Assembly (NCBI GenBank): GCA_016214345.1
Contig: JACROR010000009.1
Coordinates: forward strand, 66,447-130,446
Length of the DNA: 64,000 nt
From: Candidatus Niyogibacteria bacterium
GTDB lineage: Bacteria; Patescibacteriota; Minisyncoccia; JACROR01
Reading direction: 5' to 3'
Shown here: in pieces, positions 1 through 33,694 of the stretch
Layout of the letters: each line of letters starts with the position of its first letter
Position numbering within the stretch: the first letter of the stretch is position 1
Made by a program: the position numbers and the translations under genes
The notes under the pieces: model-generated
Told to the model about the DNA's origin: nothing
What the model saw: only the letters and a program-made list of their open reading frames with translations
Databases searched by the model: none

Positions 1-189
1 GTAGTCGGTAATGCCTTGAATTTTTCTGCCGGAACCAAAATTTATACCTGGAAAAAAGAAGAAGGCAAAATATCGTCCAAAGAATCCTCTCTGCCAAAAG
101 AGTCGCCCGCCGCTCCCAAATTAACCGAACGCAAACTCAAAGAATTATCGTGGAGTTTGGATATTTATAAAAGTTCACCCAAAGCATGA
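1..189 (+). CDS. 3' end of an upstream hypothetical protein (partial); its stop overlaps the next start (ATGA)
   Basis: Open frame running into the window and ending with TGA at 187-189; translational coupling with the VirB4-like N-fragment. Confidence 0.35.
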   Translation, partial: VVGNALNFSAGTKIYTWKKEEGKISSKESSLPKESPAAPKLTERKLKELSWSLDIYKSSPKA

Positions 190-830
190 GCCCATCCACC
201 CAACAAATAATTCCCATATCGGAAATACGAGACGACGTGATCACCCTTAAAGACGGGTCGCTCCGCATGATTCTTATGGCGTCCTCCATAAACTTCGCGT
301 TAAAATCCAAAGACGAACAGACGGCCATAATCTCCCAGTACCAATTTTTTTTAAACACCCTGGACTTCTCCATGCAATTTTTCATACAATCTTCCGAGTT
401 GGACATCAGTCCATATCTGGGATTGCTGAAAACGCAGGAAAAAACGCAAACCAATGAATTACTTAAGGTGCAAACCAGGGAGTACGCGGAATTTATAAAA
501 AATTTCGTGGAAGCTGCGCACATTATGTCCAAAACTTTTTACATTTCCGTCCCTTACACGCCCAACGCCATGAAAGCCGTTAGCGGAGGAATAAGCGGCA
601 TATTCCAAAACTTTATGGGCAAAAATAAAACCTCTGAAAAAATTTCCGGAGAACAATTTACGGAATATAAAAACCAGCTTTGGCAAAGAATGGACATTGT
701 CAGCTCCGGTCTGGCTCGTTGCGGCGTGCATACCGTGCCGCTTAAAACCGAAGAATTGATAGAATTATTTTACGGCATATACAACCCGGGAGAAATTGCT
801 ACGGGGCTTTTACCGGAAATCAAACAATAA
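186..830 (+). CDS. VirB4/PrgJ/TcpF-family ATPase, N-terminal part (split gene or separate N-domain protein)
   Basis: N-terminus IIPISEIRDDVITLKDGSLRMILMASSINFALKSKDEQ resembles the N-domain of Gram-positive VirB4-like conjugative ATPases; it is followed 4 nt later by the ATPase part. Confidence 0.5.
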   Translation: MSPSTQQIIPISEIRDDVITLKDGSLRMILMASSINFALKSKDEQTAIISQYQFFLNTLDFSMQFFIQSSELDISPYLGLLKTQEKTQTNELLKVQTREYAEFIKNFVEAAHIMSKTFYISVPYTPNAMKAVSGGISGIFQNFMGKNKTSEKISGEQFTEYKNQLWQRMDIVSSGLARCGVHTVPLKTEELIELFYGIYNPGEIATGLLPEIKQ

Positions 831-833
831 TTC

Positions 834-2651
834 ATGGCATTCTTAGACTTCTTAAAATCAAAAAAGAAAGGTGGGGAAGAAATTCTACCGGTGTACCCCT
901 CGGAAATATACGAGGCGGGCGCTCTGGAACTGAAAGACATATTGGCGCCTTCCGCTATAGAAGTTACCTCCAACTACATTAAACTGGGAGATAAGATAGC
1001 TAAAACTATATTTGTTTTCTCCTATCCGCGCTATCTATCCACGGATTGGTTTTCTCCGATCATCAACTTGGACCAAGTATTTAACATATCAATTTTCATA
1101 CATCCCATAAGCACGGAAACGGTATTAAAACAATTGCAAAATAAAGTGGCGGAGGTTCAATCGCAAACCAGCATACGCTCCGAAAAAGGTCTGGTGCGCG
1201 ATCCGATATTGGATACGGCGCTTCGCGATCTGGAAGTGCTCCGCGACAAACTGCAACAAGCGGAAGAAAAGCTTTTTAGCGTGGGAATTTATCTTACCAT
1301 ATTCGGGAAAACGCTTGAAGAATTGAACAATAATGAAGCTGAAATACGACACCTCCTGGAATCCAAACTGGTGCGCACCAAACCGGCATTATTCCAGCAA
1401 ATAGAAGGATTGGACAGCGTGCTCCCTTATAACACGGACAAACTTCAAGTTAATAGCAGACTGAATTCCGAACCGCTTTCCAGCATTTTCCCGTTCGTGT
1501 CTTCGGATCTTACTTCGGACAAAGGAATACTCTATGGGATCAACCGCCACAATAACAGTCTTATACTTTTTGATAGATTCAGCCTGGAAAATTACAATTC
1601 CGTTATTTTCGCCAAGTCCGGATCAGGAAAATCCTACACCACCAAGTTGGAAATTTTAAGATCGCTCATGTTCGGCGTAGACGTAATAGTCATAGATCCG
1701 GAACGGGAATACGAATACTTGGCCGAAGCGGTAGACGGGCGGCATATTAATATATCACTGACCTCAAAAAATCATATCAATCCCTTTGATCTTCCGGTGG
1801 CGCGCGAAGACGAATCCCCGGCGGACGTTTTACGGTCCCACATCATAAACCTGATCGGGCTATTCCGCATCATGTTGGGAGGATTAACTCCCCAAGAAGA
1901 CTCCCTCTTGGACCAGGCCATCGCGGAAACTTATGCTTCACGCGACATAACCGTAGAATCGGATTTTTCCAAAGCAACGCCGCCCATACTTTCAGACCTG
2001 GAAATGGTGCTGATGAGTACGGAAGGGGGAGAAAATCTCGCGCAACGGATGAAAAAATACACCATGGGCAGCTGGGCCGGATTTTTGAACCAACCCACTA
2101 ATATAGACATGAATAAAAATTTTATCGTCTTTTCCGTGCGCGACATGGAAGACGAATTAAAGCCCGTAGCCATGTATCTCATCACTCATTATATATGGAA
2201 TGCCGTGCGGTTAAATTTAAAAAAGCGCCTGCTCATCATTGATGAGGCGTGGTGGATGATGAAAACCGAAGACGGCGCGTCATTTCTTTTCGGCATGGCC
2301 AAAAGAGCGCGAAAATATTATCTGGGAGTCGCGACCATAACGCAGGACGTGGAAGATTTTTTAAAATCTCCTTACGGAAAACCCCTCATTACCAACTCCT
2401 CCATGCAACTTTTGCTCCGCCAGTCTCCGGCGGCGATTGATCGCTTGCAAGAAGTGATGAATTTGACCGACGAAGAAAAGTATTTGCTTTTGGAGGCGGA
2501 CATGGGGGAGGGAATATTTTTCGCGGGCTTAAAACATGTCGCCATAAAAGTACTCGCCTCTTATACCGAAGACCAAATTATAACCTCTGACCCGGGCCAG
2601 CTTATGGCCATAAAAAAAGCCAAGGAGGAATTCAAGCAAACGCAAAGCTAA
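834..2651 (+). CDS. VirB4/TraC/TrbE-family type IV secretion ATPase (C-terminal ATPase part)
   Basis: Walker A FAKSGSGKSYTTK, Walker B LLIIDEAWWMM (the DEAW motif typical of VirB4); 605 aa. Confidence 0.75.
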   Translation: MAFLDFLKSKKKGGEEILPVYPSEIYEAGALELKDILAPSAIEVTSNYIKLGDKIAKTIFVFSYPRYLSTDWFSPIINLDQVFNISIFIHPISTETVLKQLQNKVAEVQSQTSIRSEKGLVRDPILDTALRDLEVLRDKLQQAEEKLFSVGIYLTIFGKTLEELNNNEAEIRHLLESKLVRTKPALFQQIEGLDSVLPYNTDKLQVNSRLNSEPLSSIFPFVSSDLTSDKGILYGINRHNNSLILFDRFSLENYNSVIFAKSGSGKSYTTKLEILRSLMFGVDVIVIDPEREYEYLAEAVDGRHINISLTSKNHINPFDLPVAREDESPADVLRSHIINLIGLFRIMLGGLTPQEDSLLDQAIAETYASRDITVESDFSKATPPILSDLEMVLMSTEGGENLAQRMKKYTMGSWAGFLNQPTNIDMNKNFIVFSVRDMEDELKPVAMYLITHYIWNAVRLNLKKRLLIIDEAWWMMKTEDGASFLFGMAKRARKYYLGVATITQDVEDFLKSPYGKPLITNSSMQLLLRQSPAAIDRLQEVMNLTDEEKYLLLEADMGEGIFFAGLKHVAIKVLASYTEDQIITSDPGQLMAIKKAKEEFKQTQS

Positions 2652-2663
2652 AAACGAAAAGCG
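2648..2663. repeat. Left copy of a perfect 16-bp inverted repeat (CTAAAAACGAAAAGCG) bracketing the 2694-3089 gene
   Basis: Its reverse complement CGCTTTTCGTTTTTAG occurs at 3108-3123; degenerate back-to-back copies of the same motif lie at 26600-26672. Confidence 0.7.
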
Positions 2664-2693
2664 CAAAATAATAAAAACTATGATTCAAACGCG

Positions 2694-3089
2694 ATGAACG
2701 AAGAAGAGCAAATATCAACAGAACTACGAGCGGCGCAGCTGCAAAATATGAAAAAGGGTGGCGAGTCGGCAAAAAATCCTATGAAGCCCGTGGTATTTGC
2801 CCTATCTTTCCGTCAAAAAATATTAGAACATAAAATAATACTGATCACGGCGGCATTTTTTGATATCATCGCGATGATTCCCTTTGTAAGCATCGCAACC
2901 AACCCGGCGTTCGGCTTGATTTTATTCTTGTATTTTGGACCAAAAAGCAAGAAAGGGTCGGAATTTTTGAAAATCGCCCTGCCCACCGGCATAGGAACCA
3001 TTGCGGACACCGTAAGTAGCGCGATACCCTTCGCCGACCTTATACCTTTCAATATAGGCGTAGCGCTTATCAGAATAGCGCTTAGTTAA
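2694..3089 (+). CDS. Small integral membrane protein (3 predicted TM segments), hypothetical; part of the T4SS-like cluster
   Basis: Hydrophobic segments ILITAAFFDIIAMIPFVSIA, FGLILFLYFG and IPFNIGVALIRIAL; bracketed exactly by the 16-bp inverted repeats. Confidence 0.5.
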   Translation: MNEEEQISTELRAAQLQNMKKGGESAKNPMKPVVFALSFRQKILEHKIILITAAFFDIIAMIPFVSIATNPAFGLILFLYFGPKSKKGSEFLKIALPTGIGTIADTVSSAIPFADLIPFNIGVALIRIALS

Positions 3090-3107
3090 AAAAATAAATT
3101 GATTTTC

Positions 3108-3123
3108 GCTTTTCGTTTTTAGT
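3108..3123. repeat. Right copy of the 16-bp inverted repeat (CGCTTTTCGTTTTTAG)
   Basis: Perfect reverse complement of 2648-2663. Confidence 0.7.
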
Positions 3124-3167
3124 TATTAGTTTGTTTGGTATAATAATATTGTAAGATCATAAATCCA

Positions 3168-4184
3168 ATGACACTAAAACGCGAGACCATATTTATAATA
3201 TCCGGCGTCCTCCTTATGGCGGCGGGGCCTTTATCGCCAAAACTTATTTACGCTCAAGAAGCCTTGCCGCCATTCACAGGCACGAAACTTTTTTCCATAA
3301 AATTAACCCCGAATTATCCCAAACCAAACACCGCCGTAACGGCAGAAATCCTAACTTACCGCTTTGACGAAGATCGCGCCAATATTATTTGGCAAATAAA
3401 CGGCAAAACCGTAGCCCAAGGATTAGGAGTTAAAACCATAACGTTTCAGAGTCCGGACACGGGAAAAACCCAAAAAATAACCGCCTATGTAACTACGATA
3501 GAAGGCAATCAAGAAAGCCAATTGCTTAATTTAACCATACATGACGTGGATCTTCTCGTAGACGCGCTCACTTATGTTCCGCCCGGATACCGAGGCAAAG
3601 CCTGGCCCACCTTGCAATCCAGCATAAGAATATCGGCAATTCCATATCTTTTCAAAAATGGCAAAAAACTGCCGCCCGAAACCCTGATTTATGAATGGTC
3701 GTTTGATACCAAAAAAAATATACCGGCTTCCGGCGCCAATAAAGATTCTTTTGTGGCACAATTGCCAGACTCCGATGACTACCTCGTAACCTTAAAATTA
3801 TCCGACCAAGCGGACGAAATAAATTTTGAAAAAAGTATTATGTTAACTGCCAGAAAGACTTCCCCTGAAATTATCTTTTATGAAGATAATCCGCTGGAAG
3901 GGCCGATCTATGCCAAAGCGCTTTCCGGCGCCATAAAACTTAGCCAAGGCGCGATTAATCTGCGAGCTGAACCTTTTTATTTCTCTAAAGAAAATATTTC
4001 TGCCCTGACTTATGGGTGGAGCATGAATGACCAGCCGACGCCGACCGAAGAAAAGCCCAATGTTTTAAACTTGCGCGCTCCTGAAAATACTACCGGAGAA
4101 ACGGTAATAAATTTAACCATAAAAAACCTGTCGCGCCTCTTACAATCCGCGGACGCGACACTGCGTGTAATGTTCGGGCAATAA
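3168..4184 (+). CDS. Secreted or cell-surface protein with internal ~90-aa repeats (Ig-like?), hypothetical
   Basis: N-terminal signal/TM segment IFIISGVLLMAAGPL; repeated modules ending in ...LNLTIHD, ...IMLTAR and ...ATLRVMF. Confidence 0.45.
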   Translation: MTLKRETIFIISGVLLMAAGPLSPKLIYAQEALPPFTGTKLFSIKLTPNYPKPNTAVTAEILTYRFDEDRANIIWQINGKTVAQGLGVKTITFQSPDTGKTQKITAYVTTIEGNQESQLLNLTIHDVDLLVDALTYVPPGYRGKAWPTLQSSIRISAIPYLFKNGKKLPPETLIYEWSFDTKKNIPASGANKDSFVAQLPDSDDYLVTLKLSDQADEINFEKSIMLTARKTSPEIIFYEDNPLEGPIYAKALSGAIKLSQGAINLRAEPFYFSKENISALTYGWSMNDQPTPTEEKPNVLNLRAPENTTGETVINLTIKNLSRLLQSADATLRVMFGQ

Positions 4185-4190
4185 AAAAAT

Positions 4191-4940
4191 ATGAAATACT
4201 TTCCAAATAAAATCACGATTTTAACCATTATAGCCGCTGTTTTAGTATTGACGCCAATACTAACCTACGGATATACTTTTTTGGCGCCATTGCCCGGACT
4301 TGAAAAAACAATAGAAGGATCAAGCCTGTTCTCCGCATACCTTTCCGCCCTGTTTCGTTTTGCCATAGTAATAGCCTCCATACTGGCCGTAATAGTTATA
4401 ATAATCGCCGGACTGAAATACATAGGCGCCGCGGGCAATACCGCCGTCGTTAATGACGCCAAAGATCAAATATACTGGGCCGTTTTAGGACTCATTCTCG
4501 CGCTTTCTTCCTGGTTGATTTTAAGTATCATCAATCCTAAACTTTTAGTATTAAAACTGGGAGTAACCTCCACAAAGCTAATTCAAGCCCCAAACGCTGA
4601 AAGCCTGTTTTCCGGCGCTTATTGTGGTCAGTTCACAGAAAACAGCGCGTGCACCGCAGACGCTAGTTGCACCTGTAAATGCCTAGTCGGACAAGCGGCG
4701 GCAACAACTTGCAATAGCCTGAATCAGAGCGATTGCTCAGAAAATGCATATTGCAAATGGTGGTTCGCTTCAAACACATGTAACCCGCTAATAAAAGTTA
4801 AATGCCAATATAAAAATACCACCTTAAACTGCCAAACCGGACCTAAATGCGGCATATTTCCTGAGACAGATACACTGTGTTGTATGGGCTCTGCTGTGAA
4901 ATGTCAGCCATCTTCCGCAATTACCGTAACTCCGCAATAA
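4191..4940 (+). CDS. VirB2/TrbC-like pilin-type membrane protein fused to a cysteine-rich C-terminal extracellular domain
   Basis: Long signal-like N-terminus followed by two further hydrophobic helices (pilin-like topology), then ~110 aa containing 17 Cys (CGQFTENSACTADASCTCKC...). Confidence 0.4.
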   Translation: MKYFPNKITILTIIAAVLVLTPILTYGYTFLAPLPGLEKTIEGSSLFSAYLSALFRFAIVIASILAVIVIIIAGLKYIGAAGNTAVVNDAKDQIYWAVLGLILALSSWLILSIINPKLLVLKLGVTSTKLIQAPNAESLFSGAYCGQFTENSACTADASCTCKCLVGQAAATTCNSLNQSDCSENAYCKWWFASNTCNPLIKVKCQYKNTTLNCQTGPKCGIFPETDTLCCMGSAVKCQPSSAITVTPQ

Positions 4941-4945
4941 ATAAT

Positions 4946-6103
4946 ATGAACCGCAAAAAATTAATTATTATCATATCCGCCGCTTTAATCCTGATTATAT
5001 TGGGAGGGGTTTTAATTTATTATTTTTACATCAGAAGCGTGCCCGTAGCGCAAAGAGGCGTTATCGGCAGACTTTTCCCGACACCGACGGAAAAAATCGG
5101 TCCGTCATCCGCGACATCCGGACAAATTACGCCGCCGACAACCTCGGAAAAGGTAGGACAACTAGTCCACCTGACAGATATCGCGATAGCCGGCATGAAA
5201 GAAATGCCTTTTGGCCGAGCGCGATATATAGAAAAATCCACCGGCCATGTATATGAAATAAGCGGAGACGGATCCGACCGCGTGCGCGTTTCCAATACCA
5301 CCATACCCAAAATCTGGAGCGCTGAATGGTCGCCCAAGGGCGATAAGGCGGTGTTGGGCATTTTTGACGATGCGGGCATTAAGTACTTTTCCGCCATATT
5401 CAATGGCACGAGCACCGAAGGCGTATTTTTACCGGACAACGCCAATTTCGGATCATACGCGCCCAACCAAGATAAAATTCTTTACGCGACAACCTTAAAC
5501 GACAAAACAACTTTAATTACCGCGAATGCCAGCAATACCAAACAGGATAAACTTTATATTGCTCCGCCGGCAGAATTTTTGTTGGACTGGCCGGCAACTG
5601 ATACTGTTTCTCTACTAACCCGTCCCTCCGGAGCAGTCAGCGGTTTTCTTTATAACTTAGATATCAAAACAAAGGCTTTGGAAAAAATTGTTGGCGACAT
5701 CAAAGGATTGGACGCCTTGTGGTCAATCAAGGGCGATAAAATTTTAATCTCCGCGGGCGGAACAAGCCTTTCTTCGCGCGTGGTGTCTCTTACCGGAGAA
5801 ACCTTAGCCGAAGGACGAAAAACTCTTGCCGAAAAATGCGCGTGGAGCGCGTCAAAAGAAAACATTCTTTATTGCGCCATACCCACTCAAATTCCCAACG
5901 GCAATTATCCGGACGATTGGTTCAAGGGCAAAGCGTCTTTCCAAGATTATATTTTAAAAATAGACCTCTTAACGCAAGATATTACATTAATCCTTGCTCG
6001 ATCAACATTTGACATTCAAAAAATGTTAATAGGACAAGATGATAAATATCTTTATTTCATAGACAAAAATGACGGCACGCTTTGGGGGCTGAACATGGAA
6101 TAA
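4946..6103 (+). CDS. Membrane-anchored secreted protein, beta-propeller/TolB-like repeats, hypothetical
   Basis: Start chosen at MNRKKLIIIIS (N-terminal TM anchor); the ORF track opens earlier, at 4877. Confidence 0.45.
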   Translation: MNRKKLIIIISAALILIILGGVLIYYFYIRSVPVAQRGVIGRLFPTPTEKIGPSSATSGQITPPTTSEKVGQLVHLTDIAIAGMKEMPFGRARYIEKSTGHVYEISGDGSDRVRVSNTTIPKIWSAEWSPKGDKAVLGIFDDAGIKYFSAIFNGTSTEGVFLPDNANFGSYAPNQDKILYATTLNDKTTLITANASNTKQDKLYIAPPAEFLLDWPATDTVSLLTRPSGAVSGFLYNLDIKTKALEKIVGDIKGLDALWSIKGDKILISAGGTSLSSRVVSLTGETLAEGRKTLAEKCAWSASKENILYCAIPTQIPNGNYPDDWFKGKASFQDYILKIDLLTQDITLILARSTFDIQKMLIGQDDKYLYFIDKNDGTLWGLNME

Positions 6104-6120
6104 AACGCGATAATAAAAAT

Positions 6121-6150
6121 CTCCCGCTTTTATGGCGGGGAATTTTTATT
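6121..6150 (+). terminator. Rho-independent terminator after the T4SS-like cluster
   Basis: Stem CTCCCGC...GCGGGG followed by a T-run AATTTTTATT. Confidence 0.55.
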
Positions 6151-6162
6151 ATATCCTTTAAT

Positions 6163-6642
6163 TTAAATATATGGCTTAATAACCACGCGCCTTTCTTCTC
6201 CTTCTCCCATGCTTTCCGTAATTATGTCAGGATATTCGGTTAAGGCGCTGTGCACCACCCTCCTGTCATACGCGCTCATGGGTTGCATGACCACGGCTTT
6301 TTTAAAATACCTCACTCTTTGCGCGTGTATTTTTGCCAGATCCTTTAAAGACTCGTTTTTTTGCCGCTGATAATCATTCACATCCAAAAAAAACCGCACA
6401 TCCTCCCCCTCGGCAAGCGAACCGCTTTTTACTATTTTCTTAATCACATGATTCAAGGCCGCGAGTCCCGCCCCCTTATTACCTATAAGCATGCCGCCAT
6501 CTCTTACTCTCACGGCAAACTGGACCTCTTCCGAATGCAAAACGTCATCAACCGTAGCGTCAATTCCCATCTTACCGATGAGCTGTTGGATCGCTGTTTT
6601 TATTTCTTGAATGCGTTGTGATCGTTGATCTGTCTCGCCCAT
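6163..6642 (-). CDS. jag: Jag/KhpB RNA-binding protein (KH + R3H domains)
   Basis: C-terminal R3H motif VVMQPMSAYDRRVVHSAL...ESMGEGEERRVVIKP; conserved position next to yidC. The true start may be the internal MGIDATV (~6570), because the upstream part overlaps the yidC 3' end. Confidence 0.8.
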   Translation of the reverse strand: MGETDQRSQRIQEIKTAIQQLIGKMGIDATVDDVLHSEEVQFAVRVRDGGMLIGNKGAGLAALNHVIKKIVKSGSLAEGEDVRFFLDVNDYQRQKNESLKDLAKIHAQRVRYFKKAVVMQPMSAYDRRVVHSALTEYPDIITESMGEGEERRVVIKPYI

Positions 6643-7390
6643 ATTGTGATCTTAAAATGTTGGCCTGCCTGTCCGGTAGGCGGGCCCGACGCCGAACCGT
6701 ACTTTCATGCACTATAGCAAAAATATTCGTAGTCGTCCAGTACAACGAAACCACGGCAGGAAAGCTCATGGATATAAACGCTATGAATGCCGGCAAAACA
6801 TACGTGGTTTGCAGGCGCATGGCGCGCGAAAAATCAGACTGAAAAGATTTTACTTCTCCCTTTTTTGGCGGCAAAGGGGGTTGCGCGAGGCGCATTTGCA
6901 CAAATTGCGAGATTCCCGCCAACAGCGCGAAAACCAGGCTCGGTTTTTGCAGATCAAGCAATCCGAAAAAATTCATATTTATGGTTTCCGGTCTTGTCAC
7001 AAAAAAATACAACTCATTGGCGGAAAAATCCAAACCGCGCCAAAAAAGATAATAAAGGGCTATGAGGATCGGAAGCTGAACCAAAGCCACCAAGCAACCG
7101 GACAAGGGATTAACACCATGCTCCTTGTAAAGCTCCATGGTGCGCTTAGCCTGCTCTTCTTTATTATCCTTGTACTTATCACGCAGCGCCGCCATGTGCG
7201 GCTCCAATTCTTTCATTTTAACCTGCGCGCGAACGGATTTATGCGTTAACGGAAACAGGGCGATCCTTACCAATACGGTAAGCGCCACAACCGCCAGGCC
7301 CATATCGTGTCCGGGCATGATATCCACCAAAAAAACCAGGGCGTTGAAAAGCGGACGATAAAGAAATTCGTTATAAATAAAATAAAACAT
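6572..7390 (-). CDS. yidC: Membrane protein insertase YidC/Oxa1 family (short form)
   Basis: Conserved YidC TM core (LFPLTHKSVRAQVKMKELEPHMAALRDKYKDN..., PLSGCLVALVQLPILIALYY); the 45-aa C-terminal tail runs through a dispersed palindromic repeat. Confidence 0.85.
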   Translation of the reverse strand: MFYFIYNEFLYRPLFNALVFLVDIMPGHDMGLAVVALTVLVRIALFPLTHKSVRAQVKMKELEPHMAALRDKYKDNKEEQAKRTMELYKEHGVNPLSGCLVALVQLPILIALYYLFWRGLDFSANELYFFVTRPETINMNFFGLLDLQKPSLVFALLAGISQFVQMRLAQPPLPPKKGEVKSFQSDFSRAMRLQTTYVLPAFIAFISMSFPAVVSLYWTTTNIFAIVHESTVRRRARLPDRQANILRSQYGRDRSTITTHSRNKNSDPTAHR

Positions 7391-7393
7391 GGT

Positions 7394-7606
7394 TTATGCC
7401 AAATGATCAATTTGCGGATCCTGCCAGGGATGGCAACGCAAAATGCGCCTGACTCCTAAAAAATTCCCGCGCATTACGCCGTATTTTTGCAGCGCCAACA
7501 AATAATATTCCGAACATGACGGATAAAAAACACAGTGTCCTGGCCATTTTAATATTCCGCGGACGTATTGATAAATTTTCACCCAAAAAATAAAAAAATA
7601 TTTCAT
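7394..7606 (-). CDS. yidD: Membrane protein insertion efficiency factor YidD
   Basis: YidD signature VFYPSCSEYYLLALQKYGVMRGNFLGVRRILRCHPWQ. Confidence 0.85.
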   Translation of the reverse strand: MKYFFIFWVKIYQYVRGILKWPGHCVFYPSCSEYYLLALQKYGVMRGNFLGVRRILRCHPWQDPQIDHLA

Positions 7607-7615
7607 GTTGCAATA

Positions 7616-7969
7616 TTATTGGACGATTGGCGCAGAGGCAAGTCCGGACATTTTAAATAAATCTAAAATGTTTTTTAATAATTGCGCGCGCGACAACTCC
7701 GCGGCTCCGCTTTTAAAAACCAAAATAACGGCGTAACCGTCTTTAATATTGAAAAGGTTTTCCCTAATGATGGAATACGCCCGACGGCGTAACTTATTTC
7801 TCAAAATGGCCCTTTTAGAAACCTTTAAAGAAATTACACAAGCAAACCGACCGGGACCTTTGCTCGGCACAAAAAATAAGTGAATGAAATGACTGAATGT
7901 TCTTTGGCCTGACCGATAAATAACCTCAAAATTTTTTCTGCCGCTGATCTTGCGGCTCTTAGGCAGCAT
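7616..7969 (-). CDS. rnpA: RNase P protein component
   Basis: 117 aa, basic; conserved position between rpmH and yidD; RnpA-like sequence KRAILRNKLRRRAYSIIRE. Confidence 0.85.
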   Translation of the reverse strand: MLPKSRKISGRKNFEVIYRSGQRTFSHFIHLFFVPSKGPGRFACVISLKVSKRAILRNKLRRRAYSIIRENLFNIKDGYAVILVFKSGAAELSRAQLLKNILDLFKMSGLASAPIVQ

Positions 7970-7977
7970 ATTTTTTA

Positions 7978-8112
7978 TTACGCCGCGAGTTTCTTACGTC
8001 CTTTATGGCGTCTTTGTTTCAAAATGGCGCGTCCGTTAGAGGTTTTGCTCCTTTTTAAAAAACCGTGCGTGCGCGCTCGTTTTCTTTTTTTGGGTTGATA
8101 AGTTATAGACAT
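7978..8112 (-). CDS. rpmH: 50S ribosomal protein L34
   Basis: Absent from the ORF track (44 aa). Manual translation [44 protein letters not shown] matches the L34 consensus. Confidence 0.85.
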
Positions 8113-8310
8113 AAAATTTTATTAAAAACTGACGTTTAACGCCGACACCGTAAGGATTTATTTATTATACAACATACAAATTAAAAAACAATATTCACAA
8201 GTAATCCACATATTAGTAACATTCTATTAGGGTTTGGCGTGAAAATGTCTATTTGTGCGAAGACCGTGATGATTAGTATAATAATCCTATATTAATATTT
8301 TAAAAAAATC
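8113..8310. promoter_or_regulatory. AT-rich rpmH/dnaA divergent intergenic region; possible oriC part with degenerate DnaA boxes
   Basis: Near-consensus box TAATCCACA around 8203; AT-rich. Confidence 0.35.
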
Positions 8311-9264
8311 ATGACCAATCAAGAATTATGGAAAGCGGCATTGGGCGAAATTGAACTGGAACTTTCTAAGGCCAACTTCCTGACTTGGTTTAAAAATACG
8401 GCCATAGCGGATCAAAAAGAGGGGGTGATAACCGTAAGCGTGCCGAACACCTTCATAAAAGAATGGATGGAAGATAAATATCATAAATTAATTCTAAAAT
8501 CGCTTCGCAATTATTCCCGAGACATACGCAATATAGAATATAACATCTCATCGGATCTTTTAACGGGCGCGCCAAAAACCAACAAAGCCAAAGATGTCGG
8601 AAAAGAACCGCCCGCTCCGGAAAGCCAGCTTGAATTCAAAGAATTTCAAATAGACAAAGAAACCAACCTTAACCCGCGCTACACTTTTGAAACTTTCATT
8701 GTCGGTGAATTCAATGAAATGGCTCATGCCGCTTCGCTGTCCATAACTAAAAATTTAGGCCGCCTTTATAATCCACTCTTTATTTATGGCGGAGTTGGTT
8801 TGGGCAAAACGCACCTGACCCAGGCGTTAGGCAACGCCATCAAACAAAGCGACCCGGACATCAAAATCAAGTATTTAAGTTCTGAAAAATTCGCCAGCGA
8901 CTTTGTTTCGGCAATGCAAAATGCCGAAATTCCGGAATTCAAAACCAAGCATCGCAAATATGACGTTTTGATACTGGATGACGTGCAATTTTTAGCCAGT
9001 AAAATGAAAGTGCAGGAAGTATTTTTTGATATCTTCAACGAGCTTTATGACAACAATAAACAAATTATCTTATCGGCCGATCGTCCACCCAAGTCATTTA
9101 AAGAACTGGAAGAGCGAATACGGTCCCGCTTTGAAGGGGGGCTTATGGTTCACATCTCGGAACCGGACTACGAATCGCGCCTGGCCATCTTGAAAGCAAA
9201 GGCTGAAGCCAAAAAATTCAACCCGTCCAATGAAATACTTGAATTTATAGCGTCATACATCTAA
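8311..9264 (+). CDS. dnaA: Chromosomal replication initiator DnaA (N-terminal domain plus AAA+ domain), apparently truncated
   Basis: DnaA N-domain and AAA+ motifs GGVGLGKTHL and VLILDDVQF; the ORF stops at 317 aa, immediately after ...ILEFIASYI, before domain IV. Confidence 0.85.
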   Translation: MTNQELWKAALGEIELELSKANFLTWFKNTAIADQKEGVITVSVPNTFIKEWMEDKYHKLILKSLRNYSRDIRNIEYNISSDLLTGAPKTNKAKDVGKEPPAPESQLEFKEFQIDKETNLNPRYTFETFIVGEFNEMAHAASLSITKNLGRLYNPLFIYGGVGLGKTHLTQALGNAIKQSDPDIKIKYLSSEKFASDFVSAMQNAEIPEFKTKHRKYDVLILDDVQFLASKMKVQEVFFDIFNELYDNNKQIILSADRPPKSFKELEERIRSRFEGGLMVHISEPDYESRLAILKAKAEAKKFNPSNEILEFIASYI

Positions 9265-9432
9265 GAGAGGATTTTAACGGATCTTATCCCTACATAGGCC
9301 AAAAATTCGGAGGAAGAGACCACACTACGGCTATTCACTCTTATTTAAAAGTTGCCCAGGATATAAAAAAGGGGGGGAGGGTTGTGGAAGAAATAAAAAC
9401 CATACGAGAAAATCTTTACAATACCGTTTAAT
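9243..9432 (+). other. dnaA: Out-of-frame DnaA C-terminal fragment (domain IV signature helix)
   Basis: Translation in a second frame gives ...DFNGSYPYIGQKFGGRDHTTAIHSYLKVAQDIKKGGRVVEEIK...*, which contains the DnaA signature GGRDHTT. About 95 aa of DnaA (end of domain III plus the HTH start) are missing between the two pieces. Confidence 0.7.
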
Positions 9433-9674
9433 TGTTAATAAGCTCTGAAAAACATATTCATAAAATCTTAATAAAAAATCAAAAAAATCCTTTCAAATTT
9501 ACCACGCCCGAATAATTAACAGTAAACTCATATTTTTTCAACAATTTATTAATTTTAAAAATCACAAAAAGTATTTAAGAGCAACGTATTTGATTCAAAT
9601 ACACTTATTAACACCGCTAATAATAACAATAAATTTTAAATATTTTATAAATACTTATAATTAATTAAAAAAAT
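9433..9674. promoter_or_regulatory. Candidate oriC DNA-unwinding element / dnaN upstream region (very AT-rich)
   Basis: 240 bp that are AT-rich throughout (longest G/C-containing stretch is ACCACGCCCG), lying between dnaA and dnaN in the canonical origin arrangement. Confidence 0.45.
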
Positions 9675-10775
9675 ATGAAAATAACTTGCGTAAAAAATCC
9701 ATTAAAAGAAGTACTTTTTTTGGCGGAAAAAAATGCCGGGAAAATTTTAAATATGCCGATTTTAAACGGAGTTTATCTTAAAACCGAAAATAATTCTTTA
9801 AAAGTAATATCTACTAATTTGGAAACCGGATTTGAAGGAATTATTCCGGCCAAAGTGCAAAAAGAAGGCGAAGTCGTAGTTCCCGTAAAAATATTGGCGC
9901 AACTCGTGGGAGCGTCTTATGAAGATAAAATAACGCTGGAATCGGTAAAAAATAATCTAAATGTTTCTACGGAAAAAGTATCAAGTTTTATAAAGGGTTA
10001 TCCCATTGAAGATTTTCCAAAAATACCGAATATTAAATCAACTAATAAGTTTGATATTTCAGCCAAAGATTTGAGTAACGCGTTAAAATTCGTGCAAAAC
10101 GCGGCTTCCATTTCAATGATGAAACCGGAAATATCCAGTGTGTTTTTTAACGTTCAAAATAAAAATTTCATTAAAATAGTAGCCACGGATTCTTTTCGCT
10201 TAGCTGAAAAAACTTTAGAGTACGCGGTTAAAAACGCGGATTATTTTTTAATTCCGGAAAAAAGCGCGTCTGAATTATCCAGAATCCTGGAGAATAAAGA
10301 AGATAATGTACAAATAGCATTTGATAAAAATCAAATAGGATTTTACGGCGATAGTTTTAAGTTCACCTCGCGTTTGACGGAAGGAAGTTTTCCCAGTTAT
10401 GAATCCGTTATTCCTAAAAAATTTTCCACGGAAGTTTTAATCTCTCGCAACAGATTGATAGACGCGTTTCGTTCAGCCAGCATATTTACCGGAAATTTGA
10501 ATGAAATAAGCCTGCATATAATGCCCGAAGATAATTTATTGGAAATAAGAACAAAGCATAGCGACATAGGAGAACACACTTCGCAAGTTGACGCTAAAAT
10601 AATTGGAGAAAAAATAACCCTTAATTTTAATTACCATTACGTTTTGGATGGACTGCAGAACATGAGTTGTTCAGACGTTATGCTTCGTTTTAGCGGAGAA
10701 AACAGACCTCTTTTGATACAAGAGCCCAATAATTCTCAGGGAGTTTACTTGGTAATGCCGATGAAAAATGCTTAG
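9675..10775 (+). CDS. dnaN: DNA polymerase III beta sliding clamp
   Basis: 366 aa, three-domain clamp architecture, located downstream of dnaA. Confidence 0.9.
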   Translation: MKITCVKNPLKEVLFLAEKNAGKILNMPILNGVYLKTENNSLKVISTNLETGFEGIIPAKVQKEGEVVVPVKILAQLVGASYEDKITLESVKNNLNVSTEKVSSFIKGYPIEDFPKIPNIKSTNKFDISAKDLSNALKFVQNAASISMMKPEISSVFFNVQNKNFIKIVATDSFRLAEKTLEYAVKNADYFLIPEKSASELSRILENKEDNVQIAFDKNQIGFYGDSFKFTSRLTEGSFPSYESVIPKKFSTEVLISRNRLIDAFRSASIFTGNLNEISLHIMPEDNLLEIRTKHSDIGEHTSQVDAKIIGEKITLNFNYHYVLDGLQNMSCSDVMLRFSGENRPLLIQEPNNSQGVYLVMPMKNA

Positions 10776-11046
10776 ATTGAATTTTTGGTTGGAAAAGTTC
10801 AAAGAGCGCATTATTCCATCCCAAGATCTGATAAAAAGCGAATGTTTAAGCGCCATAAAATCGTGCTGTAAGGTTGGTGTTGGATATAAAATTGCTTTCA
10901 GAAAACCGGTAATTTTGATTGAAACGGGCAATGCCGCGTTACGAAACGAAATAATAATGAAGAAGGGCTTGATCTTAGATCAAATCAAAGAAAGAGTTCA
11001 TAAAGACGCCCCTTCTGACATTAAGTTCGTAACTATTTTATCCTAA
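10768..11046 (+). CDS. DUF721/DciA-like small protein
   Basis: 92 aa, overlaps the dnaN stop; DUF721-like core KVGVGYKIAFRKPVILIETGNAALRNEI. Confidence 0.4.
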   Translation: MLRLNFWLEKFKERIIPSQDLIKSECLSAIKSCCKVGVGYKIAFRKPVILIETGNAALRNEIIMKKGLILDQIKERVHKDAPSDIKFVTILS

Positions 11047-11057
11047 GATAAAATAGT

Positions 11058-13616
11058 TTATTGGAAATTTAAGATCTGTTCCAGTTTACCAATGTTGCCT
11101 ACCTCATCATAGGCTTTTATCATCAAGTCTATTTGGTTGGGGATGGAACTTAATTGTGAAAGATTAAAGTTAATTTCGTATGGCGCGATTTTCTTTGAGC
11201 CGATATACGTGTTATCCAGAAAGAAATCAACCTGTCTTATTTTATAAGGGCTAAAAATTTCTACTTTTATGTCCAGGCTTTCAGCGCTGAGAGATAGGGC
11301 GCCGCTCGGTTTGGTAAGGCGGATGTTTGGCGCGTGTTCCGGTTTGTGTATGTTGTCAAAAGTTTTGGGCAGATCGGTTTCGGTCTGTTCAATTATGCCT
11401 TGTTCGGCTGCCCATTTCCGCACCGGCCATTCCCACATGCGAAATTGCGGATCTGAATCCGGATCCGCCGGAGACGGTCCCAGAGGATTATTTTTATCAA
11501 GCCAGTAGAGTATGGAGTGTATTTGAGTCAGAACTTTTTCTTCCGTTAATTCCGGGGGCGTAAAGTCCGTGGCCAGTTTTTTAGATACGGAATCCACAAG
11601 ATAAACCCTTCCTCCCCTCCATTCGCCACGCAATACCGGTTTTGGCGCGAGAGGGTTTTCGGGAGCAATGAAATTTTCCGCCGGCATGCTTTTAAGCGCC
11701 TCTTTAAAAAAAGCATTCCACATGGGCGCCACAATAAAGCCAGCCACCTTTTTTTCCATTTGAGAATTATCGTTATTGCCGGCCCACGCGCCGAGTGCGA
11801 AATTCGGCGTGTATCCTATAATCCAGGCGTCTCGTGAATCATTGGTGGTTCCTGTTTTGGCGGCAACGTCTCTGCCCGGGAAATAAAGAGGAGAGTTTTC
11901 TCCAAATGCCGGTACGCGCGCCCGGTTATCCGAAAGCACGCTGTTTATAAGCCTGGCGATTTGAGGTTCTAAAATCTTTTCTTCCTTTTTTTGGTATTCT
12001 TCTAAAACTTTTCCGTTGGCATCCTCAACTTTTTCTATGAAGGTCGGCGTGGTCCGTACGCCATCATTTCCAAAAACTCCGTATGCTCCCACTATGTCCA
12101 AAAGCTTTACTTCTCCGCCTCCCAGAACCAGGGTTAGTCCGTATCTTTCCGGATCGTTCAAGGTGGTTATGCCCATACTCTTCGCGGTTTTAAGGGTATC
12201 CGTGAATCCGGCCAAATACAACGTTTTTACCGCCGGAACATTTATGGATTGGGCTAAGGCCTCGCGCATGGTTATGGGTCCGCGGAAAACATGGTCGTAA
12301 TTTTCGGGATGATAACATTCGTCTTTGTATTGCGGATTATTTTTTAATTTTTCAGCGGTTTCTTTTTCTTGCGCTTTAAGGTCGGGATTGCACCGGGGGT
12401 TGAATTCCGTTTGTAAGTCAAACAAGGCGGTGTCCGGGGCATAGCCCTTTTTAAGGGCCGTGGCGTAAGCAAAGGGCTTGAAGGCGGAACCGGGCTGTCG
12501 CAACGCGAGCGTAACATTAAAATTACCTTCAAATTTACAGGAAAGCCCTGGAACGCAATTTTCCGGTTCCGGCGGAGCAAAATAGTTTTTGGATCCTGCC
12601 ATAACCAATAATTTTCCGGTTTTGGGATCAGTAGCCACCATCCCGGTGTTGTGGGCGTTAAATTTGTTTAAATTTTCTTCGGCAAATTGGTTGATGGTGA
12701 CCTCGGCTTTTTTTTGTAGATCCCAGTCAAGCGTGGTAGTTACTTTAAGTCCTCCGCTTGCCACCAGGTCTTCGCCGTATTTATTTTCCAAGTAGTCTTT
12801 AACCATCATTACGAAGTGAGGAGCTTTTAAAGTGTTGGCGTCATCTTTGGCGATAAAAACCACGTTTTCTTTTTGGGCGGCTTCTTTTTCCTCTTCGGTT
12901 ATGAATTTCAGATCAGCCATTTTGGCTAAAATAAGATCTTTGCGCGATTTAAGTTCTTTGGCGTGCAGTCCAAAAGGAGAATAGTAGGACGGGGCTTGCG
13001 GTAGCGCGGCCAAATAAGCGGATTCGGCGAGTGTAAGATCTTTGGCGCGCTTATTGAAGAAAGTTTGCGAGGCGGCCTCAATGCCGTAACTGCTTGAACC
13101 GTAAGGTATTTCGTTCAGATATAATTCCAGGATTTTTTCTTTGGAATATTTTTGTTCTATTTTTATCGCCAACACCAGCTCTTTTAATTTACGGGAAAAG
13201 GTTTTTTCCGGAGTTAAGAAGCTGTTTTTTACCAGCTGTTGCGTTATGGTGGAGCCTCCCTGTTTTTTCGCGCCGGTAAAAATATCAGTTAACAGGGCGC
13301 GCAGTATGGAGAACGGCGCTATGCCGCCGTGATAATAAAAATTGTCATCTTCAATGGCTACCGTGGCATTTTTGATTTGTCGTGGCATTTCCGCGAAAGA
13401 TATTACCGTTCGTTTGATGTCTTGATGCACATCATATAAAGACACCTTTCCGGTTTTATCATAAATTTTGGTTGACTGCACTACTTTTCTGTTCAGAAGA
13501 GTGTTAAAGTCGGGTATTTTTACGCTAATTAACAGAACCCAAATACTAAAAACCCCGACCATTAAAATGCCGGATACGGTGGCTATGGGAAATATTTTTT
13601 TTGCAACCGCTTTCAT
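11058..13616 (-). CDS. Class A penicillin-binding protein (transglycosylase + transpeptidase), PBP1A family
   Basis: GT51 motifs (GGSTITQQLVKN), transpeptidase domain, N-terminal TM anchor; ~150-aa C-terminal extension. Confidence 0.9.
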   Translation of the reverse strand: MKAVAKKIFPIATVSGILMVGVFSIWVLLISVKIPDFNTLLNRKVVQSTKIYDKTGKVSLYDVHQDIKRTVISFAEMPRQIKNATVAIEDDNFYYHGGIAPFSILRALLTDIFTGAKKQGGSTITQQLVKNSFLTPEKTFSRKLKELVLAIKIEQKYSKEKILELYLNEIPYGSSSYGIEAASQTFFNKRAKDLTLAESAYLAALPQAPSYYSPFGLHAKELKSRKDLILAKMADLKFITEEEKEAAQKENVVFIAKDDANTLKAPHFVMMVKDYLENKYGEDLVASGGLKVTTTLDWDLQKKAEVTINQFAEENLNKFNAHNTGMVATDPKTGKLLVMAGSKNYFAPPEPENCVPGLSCKFEGNFNVTLALRQPGSAFKPFAYATALKKGYAPDTALFDLQTEFNPRCNPDLKAQEKETAEKLKNNPQYKDECYHPENYDHVFRGPITMREALAQSINVPAVKTLYLAGFTDTLKTAKSMGITTLNDPERYGLTLVLGGGEVKLLDIVGAYGVFGNDGVRTTPTFIEKVEDANGKVLEEYQKKEEKILEPQIARLINSVLSDNRARVPAFGENSPLYFPGRDVAAKTGTTNDSRDAWIIGYTPNFALGAWAGNNDNSQMEKKVAGFIVAPMWNAFFKEALKSMPAENFIAPENPLAPKPVLRGEWRGGRVYLVDSVSKKLATDFTPPELTEEKVLTQIHSILYWLDKNNPLGPSPADPDSDPQFRMWEWPVRKWAAEQGIIEQTETDLPKTFDNIHKPEHAPNIRLTKPSGALSLSAESLDIKVEIFSPYKIRQVDFFLDNTYIGSKKIAPYEINFNLSQLSSIPNQIDLMIKAYDEVGNIGKLEQILNFQ

Positions 13617-13652
13617 TTAACTCTATAATTATAATACCTAAATTTATATAGC

Positions 13653-14843
13653 ATGAAAAAGGATAATGACAAAATAAAAGAATTACTGGACCGGAGAGTG
13701 GTCGGCATCATAGTCAGAGAGGAGTTGGAAAAGAAGCTCAGATCCGGCAAAAAGCTGCGTATTAAGCTGGGGGTTGATGTGGCGCGTCCGGACATACATC
13801 TGGGGCATGCCGTGGCTCTGTGGAAGTTGCGAGAGTTCCAGGATTTGGGACACACGGTCATCTTTTTGATAGGCGACGCCACTACGCGCATAGGCGACCC
13901 TACGGGTCAAGACAGAACCAGGCCGCTTTTAACGGAAGAACAAATCAATAAAAACGCGGAAACCTACATAGAACAAGCCGGTAAAATTTTAGACATTAAT
14001 AAAACGGAAGTTCGCCGCAATTCGGAATGGTTTGATGAGATGGCCATGTTTGATTTTATAAAACTTCTTACCATGGTAACCCATTCGCAATTGATAGCGC
14101 GGGAGGCCTTTCAGGAAAGAATTAAGGCCGGTAAGGAAATTTTAATGCATGAAATAATCTATCCGGTCATGCAGGGGTACGACTCGGTCGTACTGAAGGC
14201 GGATGTGGCCGTACACGCGGACCAGCTTTTTAATGAACATTTCGGCCGGATGTTGCAGGAAAAGTTTGGGCAAGAACCGCAGACGATCATGACGGTGCCC
14301 ATATTGGTGGGCTTGGACGGCAAACATAAAATGTCCAAGTCTTTGGATAATTATGTGGGCGTTGCGGAGAGTCCGGAGAGCATGTACGGAAAAGCAATGT
14401 CTTTACCGGATGAATTAATAATTGATTATTTTAATTTGTGTACTTTTGTTGACGCGGCTGAAATTTCTCAAATGAATGAAGCAATAAAAAATCATAAATT
14501 AAATCCGCGTGATGTGAAAATGAGATTAGCGCGCGAGATTGTTTCTATTTATCATAGTGTCAAAGATGCGGACGGAGCGGAGGAAAATTTTAAAAATATT
14601 TTTCAAAAAGGCGCTTTGCCGTCAGAAGTTCCTTTGCTGATTTTGCGGTCTCCGGGAAAATTATCCGATATTTTATTGGGCGCGAAATTGGTTTCTTCGC
14701 GTTCGGAATTCCGGAGGCTGATCAATGCCCGAGGTATAGATTTTGAGGGCGTTGTGGTGGAAGATCCGCATCGCATTATTAATGAGTCGGGCACAGTACG
14801 AGTGGGCAAACTTAAATTTTTAAAAATAGAGTTTATAAAATAA
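13653..14843 (+). CDS. tyrS: Tyrosyl-tRNA synthetase
   Basis: HIGH motif HLGH, KMSKS motif, C-terminal S4 domain. Confidence 0.85.
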   Translation: MKKDNDKIKELLDRRVVGIIVREELEKKLRSGKKLRIKLGVDVARPDIHLGHAVALWKLREFQDLGHTVIFLIGDATTRIGDPTGQDRTRPLLTEEQINKNAETYIEQAGKILDINKTEVRRNSEWFDEMAMFDFIKLLTMVTHSQLIAREAFQERIKAGKEILMHEIIYPVMQGYDSVVLKADVAVHADQLFNEHFGRMLQEKFGQEPQTIMTVPILVGLDGKHKMSKSLDNYVGVAESPESMYGKAMSLPDELIIDYFNLCTFVDAAEISQMNEAIKNHKLNPRDVKMRLAREIVSIYHSVKDADGAEENFKNIFQKGALPSEVPLLILRSPGKLSDILLGAKLVSSRSEFRRLINARGIDFEGVVVEDPHRIINESGTVRVGKLKFLKIEFIK

Positions 14844-14874
14844 TAATCCCGGCGCAGCCGGGATTATTATTTTA
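14844..14874. terminator. Intrinsic terminator after tyrS
   Basis: AATAATCCCGGC-GCA-GCCGGGATTATT followed by a T-run. Confidence 0.7.
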
Positions 14875-15184
14875 TAGTTCTTCGTTTTCTTCTGTGGGAA
14901 ATGCTTCCTCTGCGAATTCTTCCGGGTCCGTCATTTCTTCCGGGTCATCAATATTCTCCCCGTCGTCCGTATTTAAGATTATATCTTTTGAAATTAAATC
15001 CATGCGTTTTTGTTTAGCTAATTATTACGACCTTGCCCGCCCTTTCGCGGGAAATATTTATAATTCCTACGGAAATTCAAGAAATGCCGCGGCATTTCTT
15101 ATATTTGTACCAAAATTAATATTTTTGTAAAGACCCCGTAATTTTATTGTGGATAACTTGTGAGCAAGGCCTGTATATGGTTAT

Positions 15185-21607: not shown

Positions 21608-23954
21608 GACCAACGTAAAAAATAAAAATACGGAACGGATATTGGTGCTTTTGGACGCGCACGCTATTTTACATCGCGCCTTCCATGCTTTGCCGTCTTT
21701 TACTTCTCCGCAGGGGGCGCCCACAGGCGCGCTTTACGGTTTTTCATCCATGCTGATCAAGATTATCCGGGAATTAAAACCGGATTTTATAGTGGCCTGT
21801 TATGAGTTGCCGCAGCCAACTTTCCGGCATGTTGTTTACGAGGCTTATAAAGGTAAGCGGCCTAAAATGGACGAGGGTTTGGCCTTGCAAATAAATAGAT
21901 CCAGAGACATTTTGAAGGCGTTTAATATTCCGAGCTATGACGCTCCGGGATTTGAAGCGGACGACATTATAGGCACCATTGCTTTTAAATCCAAAAAAGA
22001 AAAAAATCTCAAAGTGATCATCGCTTCAGGCGATTTAGACACGCTTCAATTGGTATCGGGCAGCAAGGTTACGGTTTATACTCTTAAAAAAGGCATCCAA
22101 GACACAATTATTTATGATGAGGCCGGAGTAAAAGAGCGTTTTGGTTTTGTTCCGGCGTTATTGCCGGACTTTAAAGGCCTCAAGGGCGATCCTTCGGACA
22201 ATATTATCGGGGTTCCGGGCATAGGCGATAAGAGCGCGACGGAACTCATTTTAAAATTCGGTTCTTTGGAAAATATTTATAAAAATTTAAAAAAAGACCG
22301 CGCTAAATTTTTAAATCTGGGAATAAAACAGCGCATTGCCGCGCTTTTGGAAGAGCATGAAGATGACGCGCTGTTCAGCAAGGAATTGGCCACGATTCGT
22401 TTGGACGCACCCGTGATCTTTCATATAAAAGATACGGAATGGAGCAAGAATTACGATCGCGCAAAAGCGGAAAAATTATTCAGGGAATTGGGTTTTGCGA
22501 GCTTGCTTTCCCGTTTGCCCGGAGAGGCGGAAAGTCCAAAGATTTCGGTTTCCACGATAAATCCCCAAAAAGAAAAAGAGCTCTCGGTGGCTTTTTGGTT
22601 GCTGGATTCGCGCCACATAAATGCTTCGGCGGAAGACATTTTTAGGGCGGTTAACGCCAAAAATACGGAAGAAGCGGAAGCGGCGCTTAACGGCAAGTTG
22701 GCAAAAGAAGGGCTGATTAATTTTTTTGAAGAAACTGAAATACCCCTGATGAGCATATTGAATGAAATGGAGCGGCGCGGTATTTTAATAGACCGGAAAA
22801 TTTTAATGAGATTTTCCAAAAAATATGAAAAAGAAATAGTGACATTGGAAAAGAGGATTTGCCAGTTGGCGGGTGCCAAGTTTAATGTCGCTTCTCCCAA
22901 ACAGTTGTCGGAAATTTTATACGATAAATTAAAAATTTCCACCAAGGGAATAAGAAAAACCGGAGGCGGAGCGCAATCCACAAGTTTTCCCGAATTAAAA
23001 AAACTTTTACATAGCCATCCTATTATTGAGTTGGTGTTAAAATATCGCGAATTGGCGAAGCTAAAATCAACTTATTTGGACACTTTGCCCGGATTGGCCG
23101 ATAAAGATTCGCGTGTTCATACCACTTATAATCAGGCGGGCACGGCAACGGGTCGCTTTTCTTCGCAAAATCCCAATTTGCAAAATATTCCGGTTAAATC
23201 GGAAACCGGGAAAGAAATTCGCAGGGCATTCATAGCTCCTGCCGGTTGGAAGATGCTTTCCGCGGATTATTCTCAAATTGAGCTTCGTGTCGCGGCCATG
23301 TTGTCTGACGATAAGATCATGAAGAGAGCTTTTTTGGAGGGAAAAGACATTCATGGCGCCACGGCTTCGGCGGTGTTTAATGTTTCGGAAGGTGAGGTGA
23401 CCAAAGAAATGCGCCGGCGCGCCAAGGTTATTAATTTTGGCATTTTGTACGGTATGGGGGCGAGGTCGCTTTCAGAAAATTTAGGAGTTTCATTGGATGA
23501 AGCTAAAAAATATTTGGCGGAATATTTTGAAGATTTTTCCGGAATTAAAAAATACATGGATGATACGAAAAATACGGCAAAGAGTTTGGGTTTTGTCAAA
23601 ACCTTGTTCGGCCGTAAGCGTTATTTTCCCGAATTGCGATCCTTGCCCGAATATCTTCATCATGAATTTTTGCGCATGGCGGTTAACGCTCCGATCCAGG
23701 GTACGGCCGCGGATATCATGAAAATAGCCATGGTGCGAGCGCATCGCGCGCTTCAAAAAGATCCAGAAATGGCGCAAAGCGCGCGTATGATTTTGCAGAT
23801 TCACGATGAACTCATTTTTGAAATTAAAGATGAATTTGTGTTAAAGGCCGCGAAGATCATCAAACAAGAAATGGAGAGCGCGTATCAAGATGAGATTCCG
23901 CTCACGGTGGATATAAAAATCGGTCCTAACTGGGCGGACATGGAAAGAATATGA
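21597..23954 (+). CDS. polA: DNA polymerase I (5'-3' exonuclease + family A polymerase domains)
   Basis: N-terminal FEN-like domain, C-terminal Pol A motifs (DYSQIELR, QIHDELIFE). Confidence 0.9.
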   Translation: MSVKTNVKNKNTERILVLLDAHAILHRAFHALPSFTSPQGAPTGALYGFSSMLIKIIRELKPDFIVACYELPQPTFRHVVYEAYKGKRPKMDEGLALQINRSRDILKAFNIPSYDAPGFEADDIIGTIAFKSKKEKNLKVIIASGDLDTLQLVSGSKVTVYTLKKGIQDTIIYDEAGVKERFGFVPALLPDFKGLKGDPSDNIIGVPGIGDKSATELILKFGSLENIYKNLKKDRAKFLNLGIKQRIAALLEEHEDDALFSKELATIRLDAPVIFHIKDTEWSKNYDRAKAEKLFRELGFASLLSRLPGEAESPKISVSTINPQKEKELSVAFWLLDSRHINASAEDIFRAVNAKNTEEAEAALNGKLAKEGLINFFEETEIPLMSILNEMERRGILIDRKILMRFSKKYEKEIVTLEKRICQLAGAKFNVASPKQLSEILYDKLKISTKGIRKTGGGAQSTSFPELKKLLHSHPIIELVLKYRELAKLKSTYLDTLPGLADKDSRVHTTYNQAGTATGRFSSQNPNLQNIPVKSETGKEIRRAFIAPAGWKMLSADYSQIELRVAAMLSDDKIMKRAFLEGKDIHGATASAVFNVSEGEVTKEMRRRAKVINFGILYGMGARSLSENLGVSLDEAKKYLAEYFEDFSGIKKYMDDTKNTAKSLGFVKTLFGRKRYFPELRSLPEYLHHEFLRMAVNAPIQGTAADIMKIAMVRAHRALQKDPEMAQSARMILQIHDELIFEIKDEFVLKAAKIIKQEMESAYQDEIPLTVDIKIGPNWADMERI

Positions 23955-31210: not shown

Positions 31211-31382
31211 ATTTTTATTGCGTCTAGTGAGGAGCGAAGTGTCCGCTAGCTGGCGGATCGCACTTCGTCCCTGCCTACCGGCAGGCAGGCGAGTGACGAC
31301 GCAACAAAAGGTTTAATACCTTTTATTTTATCATTGTTCGTCATTTGAGTGAAAATAGTGATAAGGGCCTTTTAGGAATATA

Positions 31383-31805: not shown

Positions 31806-31808
31806 GCT

Positions 31809-33679: not shown

Positions 33680-33694
33680 TTTATGTTTTGGAAC

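Follow-up and report, generated by a model that had tools for sequence, protein, structure and literature searches.

The dnaA gene in the window, by which we mean the whole 64-kb stretch of DNA analysed here, lacks 250 nt of its coding sequence, and this deletion appears to be confined to the deposited contig of a Candidatus Niyogibacteria MAG; the population that the MAG represents carries an intact, syntenic dnaA of 456 aa at its origin. Comparison with a near-identical contig from an independent assembly suggests that the disruption is probably a local assembly or scaffold-join error, and we would treat the finding as a flaw in a single database entry.

Truncated dnaA and its out-of-frame remnant

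The 5′ part of dnaA forms an ORF of 317 aa, in which codon 317 is changed from ATG (Met) to ATC (Ile) and the premature TAA (9262-9264) follows directly, so that the product ends in ...NEILEFIASYI. Both the ORF list and the translation confirm this end, which the preliminary description had given as ...ILEFIASYI. Domain I, the linker, the AAA+ core and the start of the lid are encoded by this part (Table 1). In the Pfam search, the 317-aa product matched DnaA_N (PF11638; E = 6e-15, residues 4-66) for domain I and the full profile of Bac_DnaA (PF00308; E = 8e-66, residues 120-280) for the AAA+ core, and it contains the Walker A motif GGVGLGKTH. The sensor-II lid motif (N-I/V-RELEGAL), found as QTNIRELEGAL in the intact allele, and a complete in-frame domain IV (Bac_DnaA_C) are missing. 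GenBank holds the identical 317-aa protein as MBI5045597.1, from a 133,307-nt contig of the Candidatus Niyogibacteria MAG (locus tag HZC14). As written, the window copy is predicted to be unable to give a functional initiator, with the block lost and the rest of domain IV out of frame, and by established knowledge of DnaA its 317-aa product could not bind DnaA boxes.

Table 1. Coordinates of the features discussed, as positions in the window
Feature	Position	Strand	Description	Evidence
Second blunt deletion	4675..4676		96 nt (32 codons), in frame, in the T4SS-pilin-like ORF 4191..4940	Comparison with Logan contig L008
rpmH-dnaA intergenic region	8113..8310		74% A+T	GC-skew sign change in the region
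dnaA 5′ part	8311..9264	+	Codons 1-316 intact	ORF list, Pfam, NCBI protein, Logan contig identity
Deletion junction	9260..9261			blastn breakpoints, end sequences, alignment with relatives L001-L004
dnaA 3′ remnant	9261..9431	+	Codons 401-456 and native stop 9429-9431	Translation, Pfam, intact-allele identity
A6G7 homopolymer	9365..9377	+	Inside the remnant	Unchanged in Logan contig L008, equal length in relative L004
dnaA-dnaN intergenic region	9432..9674		81% A+T	Near the cumulative GC-skew minimum
dnaN (beta clamp)	9675..10775	+	Intact; MAG-private Ser190Tyr substitution (C to A) at 10243	

Relative to the near-identical contig, exactly 250 nt are missing at the junction (GCAAACCAAC...CATGTATTTG), and the DNA alignment with relatives likewise shows one internal block absent from the window. 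The block comprises the third base of codon 317 and codons 318-400 (83 codons plus 1 nt), which is less than the ~95 aa or ~285 nt initially estimated. The lost residues, QTNIRELEGALNSIIAREKF...VVQPRQIAMYL, make up the lid motif with the sensor-II arginine, the linker and the first helices of domain IV; the earlier reading that the end of the lid and the first half of domain IV are gone is thus borne out, as the block holds both NIRELEGAL and PRQIAMYL. A frameshift and a separate loss had been proposed, but a single event accounts for both, because loss of the 250 nt displaces the reading frame by one base and at the same time generates the stop codon (AT/C TAA). Comparison of the sequences at both ends showed that the junction is blunt, shares 0 nt of microhomology and is not flanked by a repeat, which ruled out a microhomology- or repeat-mediated deletion. 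The suggested deletion between SY-I and SYPYI did not hold up either: the junction lies 21 nt upstream of SYPYI, and the resemblance is coincidental. Exact runs shared with relatives at the deletion limits might account for breaks in the assembly graph, but none of unusual length was found to end at gene positions 950 or 1200 against the relatives L001 or L004.

The 3′ remnant translates to LREDFNGSYPYIGQKFGGRDHTTAIHSYLKVAQDIKKGGRVVEEIKTIRENLYNTV followed by the native stop, one base out of frame with the 5′ part. Its frame is open from 9243, in agreement with the preliminary description, which had placed the beginning of a second frame ~20 nt upstream of the premature stop; the end of the feature, previously set at 9432, moves to the last base of the native stop. 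Of the 69 positions of the Bac_DnaA_C profile, the remnant matched only 44-69 (26 positions). It keeps the DnaA signature GGRDHTTAIH out of frame only, and according to the translation and the ORF list no ATG, GTG or TTG start precedes it in its frame. It shows 0 differences from the intact allele, as does the whole gene, and differs from the relatives by 17-23 codons with synonymous changes only versus 1-2 amino-acid changes. The remnant therefore appears to have been under strong purifying selection until effectively the present, with no decay; together with the absence of substitutions, this means that any real deletion would have to be extremely recent. The homopolymer inside the remnant, earlier given as A7G7, is A6G7 and is read through as the conserved DIKKGGRVVEE. 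It is uninvolved in the disruption: the intact allele carries the identical run and a relative one of equal length, by which a homopolymer error was ruled out.

The GenBank accession numbers run from MBI5045597 (DnaA) to MBI5045599 (DnaN), with one number between them unaccounted for. Because the numbering skips one, NCBI probably annotated one more CDS between dnaA and dnaN (9243-9674), and this CDS is possibly the out-of-frame domain IV remnant read from a rare start codon.

Intact allele in an independent assembly

A Logan contig of run SRR12113407 (SRR12113407_651706, 13,323 nt; L005/L008) was found via the exact RnpA and YidC proteins. It is identical to the window at 2553/2554 nt over 2122-4675, at all 4585 nt over 4676-9260 and at 5837/5838 nt over 9261-15098, and it carries 250 extra nt at the dnaA junction, which restore a full DnaA of 456 aa. 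The restored protein contains all Pfam domains, including Bac_DnaA_C at positions 2-69 (E = 5e-26), and could be aligned end to end with the B. subtilis DnaA of PDB 8BTG (E = 2e-107, residues 4-451). Compared with the relatives, the 250-nt block shows 20-25 synonymous versus 5-6 amino-acid-changing codons, matching its flanks; since its divergence equals that of the rest of the gene, the block appears to be the strain's own sequence. A second Logan contig is identical to the window over 31300-37917 (6618/6618), and Logan has exact copies of six out of 10 other proteins of the window. The preliminary description had held that the disruption, if real, leaves the only dnaA next to the oriC non-functional; for the organism this is not supported, as the SRR12113407 assembly encodes the 456-aa DnaA between the same flanks. 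Reads with additional sequence at this site had been named there as the mark of a misassembly, and the 250 extra nt in an assembly of this public run are in substance just that.

Searches for other copies within the 64-kb window gave none. The missing 250 nt were not found elsewhere by blastn, and for a second dnaA, which the preliminary description had advised looking for, tblastn with the full-length DnaA recovered the known locus only. An exact-pattern scan for the 24-mer across the deletion junction returned 0 matches in public genome contigs and 0 in public metagenome contigs. With the intact right junction as the pattern, there were 0 matches in public genome contigs and one in public metagenome contigs (L006, JAERMT010000423.1, 1676-1699); this contig was rejected as relevant, because the exact 24-nt match is due to chance or an unrelated sequence and nothing else in it is similar to the window. 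It cautions that 24-mers of conserved helix-turn-helix coding sequence can recur. Neither the 317-aa DnaA nor the 249-aa pilin had a match in the gene-position index of other assemblies, and in the protein collection both gave the NCBI record only. A lookup of the DnaN Ser190Tyr variant and the 338-aa ORF brought no independent contig carrying the deletion on record.

Full length is also the rule among the homologues, 116 of the 120 best of which are 450-479 aa long and contain Bac_DnaA_C. The two closest are of 456 aa (94% and 93% amino-acid identity) and lie in the same rnpA-dnaA-dnaN context, which speaks against the alternative raised earlier that relatives share the short architecture; no homologue with this architecture in a continuous frame was found among the 120 best. 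Synonymous changes far outnumber non-synonymous ones against the relatives in every segment of dnaA.

The DnaA of another MAG (P0017, MHA1747423.1; 60% identical) is labelled 'partial', has 316 aa and ends in ...ILEYIASSI, exactly at the codon homologous to the truncation point in the window, and a further homologue (P0015, 307 aa) ends 10 residues earlier. These two ends may mean that assemblies tend to break directly ahead of the conserved NIRELEGAL segment.

Origin locus around dnaA

The gene lies between rpmH-rnpA-yidD-yidC on the minus strand and dnaN, which is the standard gene order and the position expected for an origin. The GC skew changes sign at the locus, with the cumulative GC-skew minimum at ~8-10 kb. 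A near-consensus DnaA box, TAATCCACA, was found at 8202-8210 in the rpmH-dnaA intergenic region; it is the one site with at most one mismatch in the flanking intergenic regions, in which E. coli-type boxes are sparse. It is thus gene order and GC skew that carry the origin call, because E. coli-type boxes are not enriched. Of the canonical oriC proposed in the preliminary description, the location is supported by the GC-skew switch and the gene order, and the canonical boxes are reduced to this single site. The dnaA-dnaN intergenic region is a candidate DNA-unwinding region of the origin.

Two neighbouring features are worth recording. A 92-aa ORF (10768..11046, plus strand) overlaps the end of dnaN and is conserved in all relatives; its similarity to DciA, an ancestral helicase-loader family (PF05258), is sub-threshold (E = 0.0087, 16.7 bits versus a cutoff of 24). 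Directly upstream of the origin locus, at ~1-6100 on the plus strand, lies a T4SS-like cluster with a VirB4/TraG-like DUF87 ATPase (834..2651), a T4SS pilin (4191..4940) and unknown membrane proteins, and the syntenic relative L009 has PrgI and TraC-like genes in addition in this cluster.

Other differences private to the MAG

A second blunt deletion, 4.6 kb from the dnaA junction, is likewise absent from the Logan contig. It is out of register with the Cys repeats and lowers the Cys count of the pilin-like protein from 18 to 15. The corresponding protein of L009 (243 aa) also lacks this stretch, and the pilin C-terminus is hypervariable; the 96-nt deletion could thus be natural variation, because it is in frame, falls in a hypervariable C-terminus and is matched by the absence of the stretch in a relative.

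At the DNA level, only two substitutions separate the MAG from Logan in 19.9 kb, namely C to A at 3184 (A6E in ORF 3168..4184) and C to A at 10243, where the Ser of DnaN that became Tyr is kept in all relatives. No synonymous or intergenic difference was found in this 19.9-kb comparison. Two further differences, D70E and E256D, lie in polA (21804-21806 and 22362-22364). A common mutational signature of the private substitutions was considered and rejected: 3184 and 10243 are C to A, and the two polA differences are not both so.

Origin of the disruption

We regard the assembly or scaffold-join error as the probable origin of the truncated dnaA. Two contig ends would have been joined directly, with the short intervening stretch left out, and the join would have generated an artificial frameshift and stop codon; replication of the organism would be initiated by an ordinary DnaA. 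A blunt junction without repeats is as expected for abutted contig ends, and the defect is absent from the independent assembly of the same population; we infer that the junction is a product of the assembly and not of a change in the DNA. The preliminary description had also considered an assembly collapse. An assembly artefact is indeed favoured, but it would not be the collapse of a repeat, because no repeat flanks the junction. Uncurated short-read MAGs are documented to contain gene-corrupting local assembly errors: Chen et al. (2020, Genome Res, PMC7111523) describe 13 in a single CPR genome of 1.13 Mb, about a dozen per Mb. A candidate source study assembled with MEGAHIT, scaffolded with IDBA-UD and has a Niyogibacteria bin of 44% GC in its list (PMC7906910); the window has 44.1% GC, and the link to the MAG is only a candidate one.

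The error has to be squared with a contiguous sequence that has no Ns and was annotated by NCBI unchanged. Reads must be the source of every junction k-mer in a de Bruijn contig, so that an error could have entered only at a scaffolding, gap-closing or editing step. The same features are what one would expect of a genuine recent 250-nt deletion allele, held by a minority or specific to one sample and followed by the assembler, an explanation that we consider the main rival, possible but less likely. Cells with such an allele would persist only briefly, or would be complemented within polyploid cells or by their neighbours. The MAG seems to be a slightly different haplotype or consensus, because it differs from the Logan contigs by few substitutions (two in 13.3 kb and the two in polA), and both deletions may be part of this haplotype; the neighbouring in-frame deletion, situated in a hypervariable surface protein, fits this as well. 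However, nearly all bacteria depend on dnaA, and a null allele should therefore stay below consensus frequency; the allele assembled from SRR12113407 is the intact one, and the products of both deletions are absent from all other indexed assemblies. A blunt junction without microhomology also argues against a genuine deletion. So does the look of the four changes private to the MAG in this 7-kb stretch, none of which seems to have passed through selection: they are two non-synonymous C-to-A substitutions, one of them at a Ser conserved in relatives, and two blunt deletions. It seems highly improbable that one or more samples contain the deletion as a genuine and common allele, which would mean a natural Niyogibacteria (CPR) population with viable cells whose only dnaA is null. 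If true, such cells would have to start replication independently of DnaA, or genome copies or cells of an episymbiont would have to complement one another.

Two readings take the truncated gene as a property of the lineage or of its DnaA. A decaying pseudogene in a lineage that replicates without DnaA, as some obligate endosymbionts do, would agree with the truncated deposited copy and with a 64-kb window that holds neither a second dnaA nor the 250 nt elsewhere. Such a loss should be shared, and the lesion is common neither to the independent assembly, where an intact allele has identical flanks, nor to the relatives, all close ones of which are full length and syntenic; with 0 substitutions in either remnant and purifying selection across the whole gene against the relatives, this reading becomes extremely improbable, and loss of dnaA by the lineage is practically ruled out. 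A functional short or split DnaA, with the 317 aa acting alone, together with a separate C-terminal piece, or after recoding that restores the frame, could draw on the two open frames and on the accession gap that hints at an extra CDS. It founders on the 83 codons that are physically absent, with the NIRELEGAL sensor-II segment and the PRQIAMYL half of the helix-turn-helix, because of which recoding could not restore DnaA either; the remnant covers 26 of the 69 Bac_DnaA_C positions without an upstream ATG, GTG or TTG start in its frame, and no homologue has that architecture in a continuous frame, which leaves hardly any probability for it.

Taken at face value, a CPR bacterium with an inactivated origin-linked dnaA would bear on how replication starts in ultra-small symbionts. 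The evidence shows instead a normal dnaA in the population, and the practical use of the result lies in quality control: MBI5045597.1 (317 aa) is a truncated product and is unfit to serve as a DnaA architecture or to be counted as a gene loss. Caution extends to other gene models of this MAG, because at least one further private deletion lies on this contig.

Comparison with known systems

The intact allele resembles an ordinary bacterial DnaA origin locus, such as that of B. subtilis, in its domains, gene order and position of the GC-skew switch; the window copy differs in lacking codons 318-400 and in being frameshifted. Loss of dnaA is known in obligate insect endosymbionts, and DnaA-independent replication occurs in some cyanobacteria. 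The case considered here is similar in that a small-genome, symbiont-like bacterium has an apparently non-functional dnaA. There, however, whole lineages lack the gene or have it in degraded form, whereas here there is an intact allele in the same population, purifying selection in the relatives and a remnant without decay. Domain IV is required for DnaA-box binding, and laboratory mutants of E. coli DnaA without domain IV exist. The predicted 317-aa product is comparable with them, since it would consist of domains I-III minus sensor II without the DNA-binding domain; those mutants are laboratory constructs, and the truncated protein is a predicted product. Among the assembly errors of PMC7111523, the classes described are unsupported consensus, Ns despite overlap and wrong repeat number, and a clean 250-nt omission without Ns is not explicit among them. 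On the other hand, the dnaA disruption shares with those errors that it corrupts a gene, occurs in one assembly only, is absent from an independent assembly, and has a junction without a biological signature.
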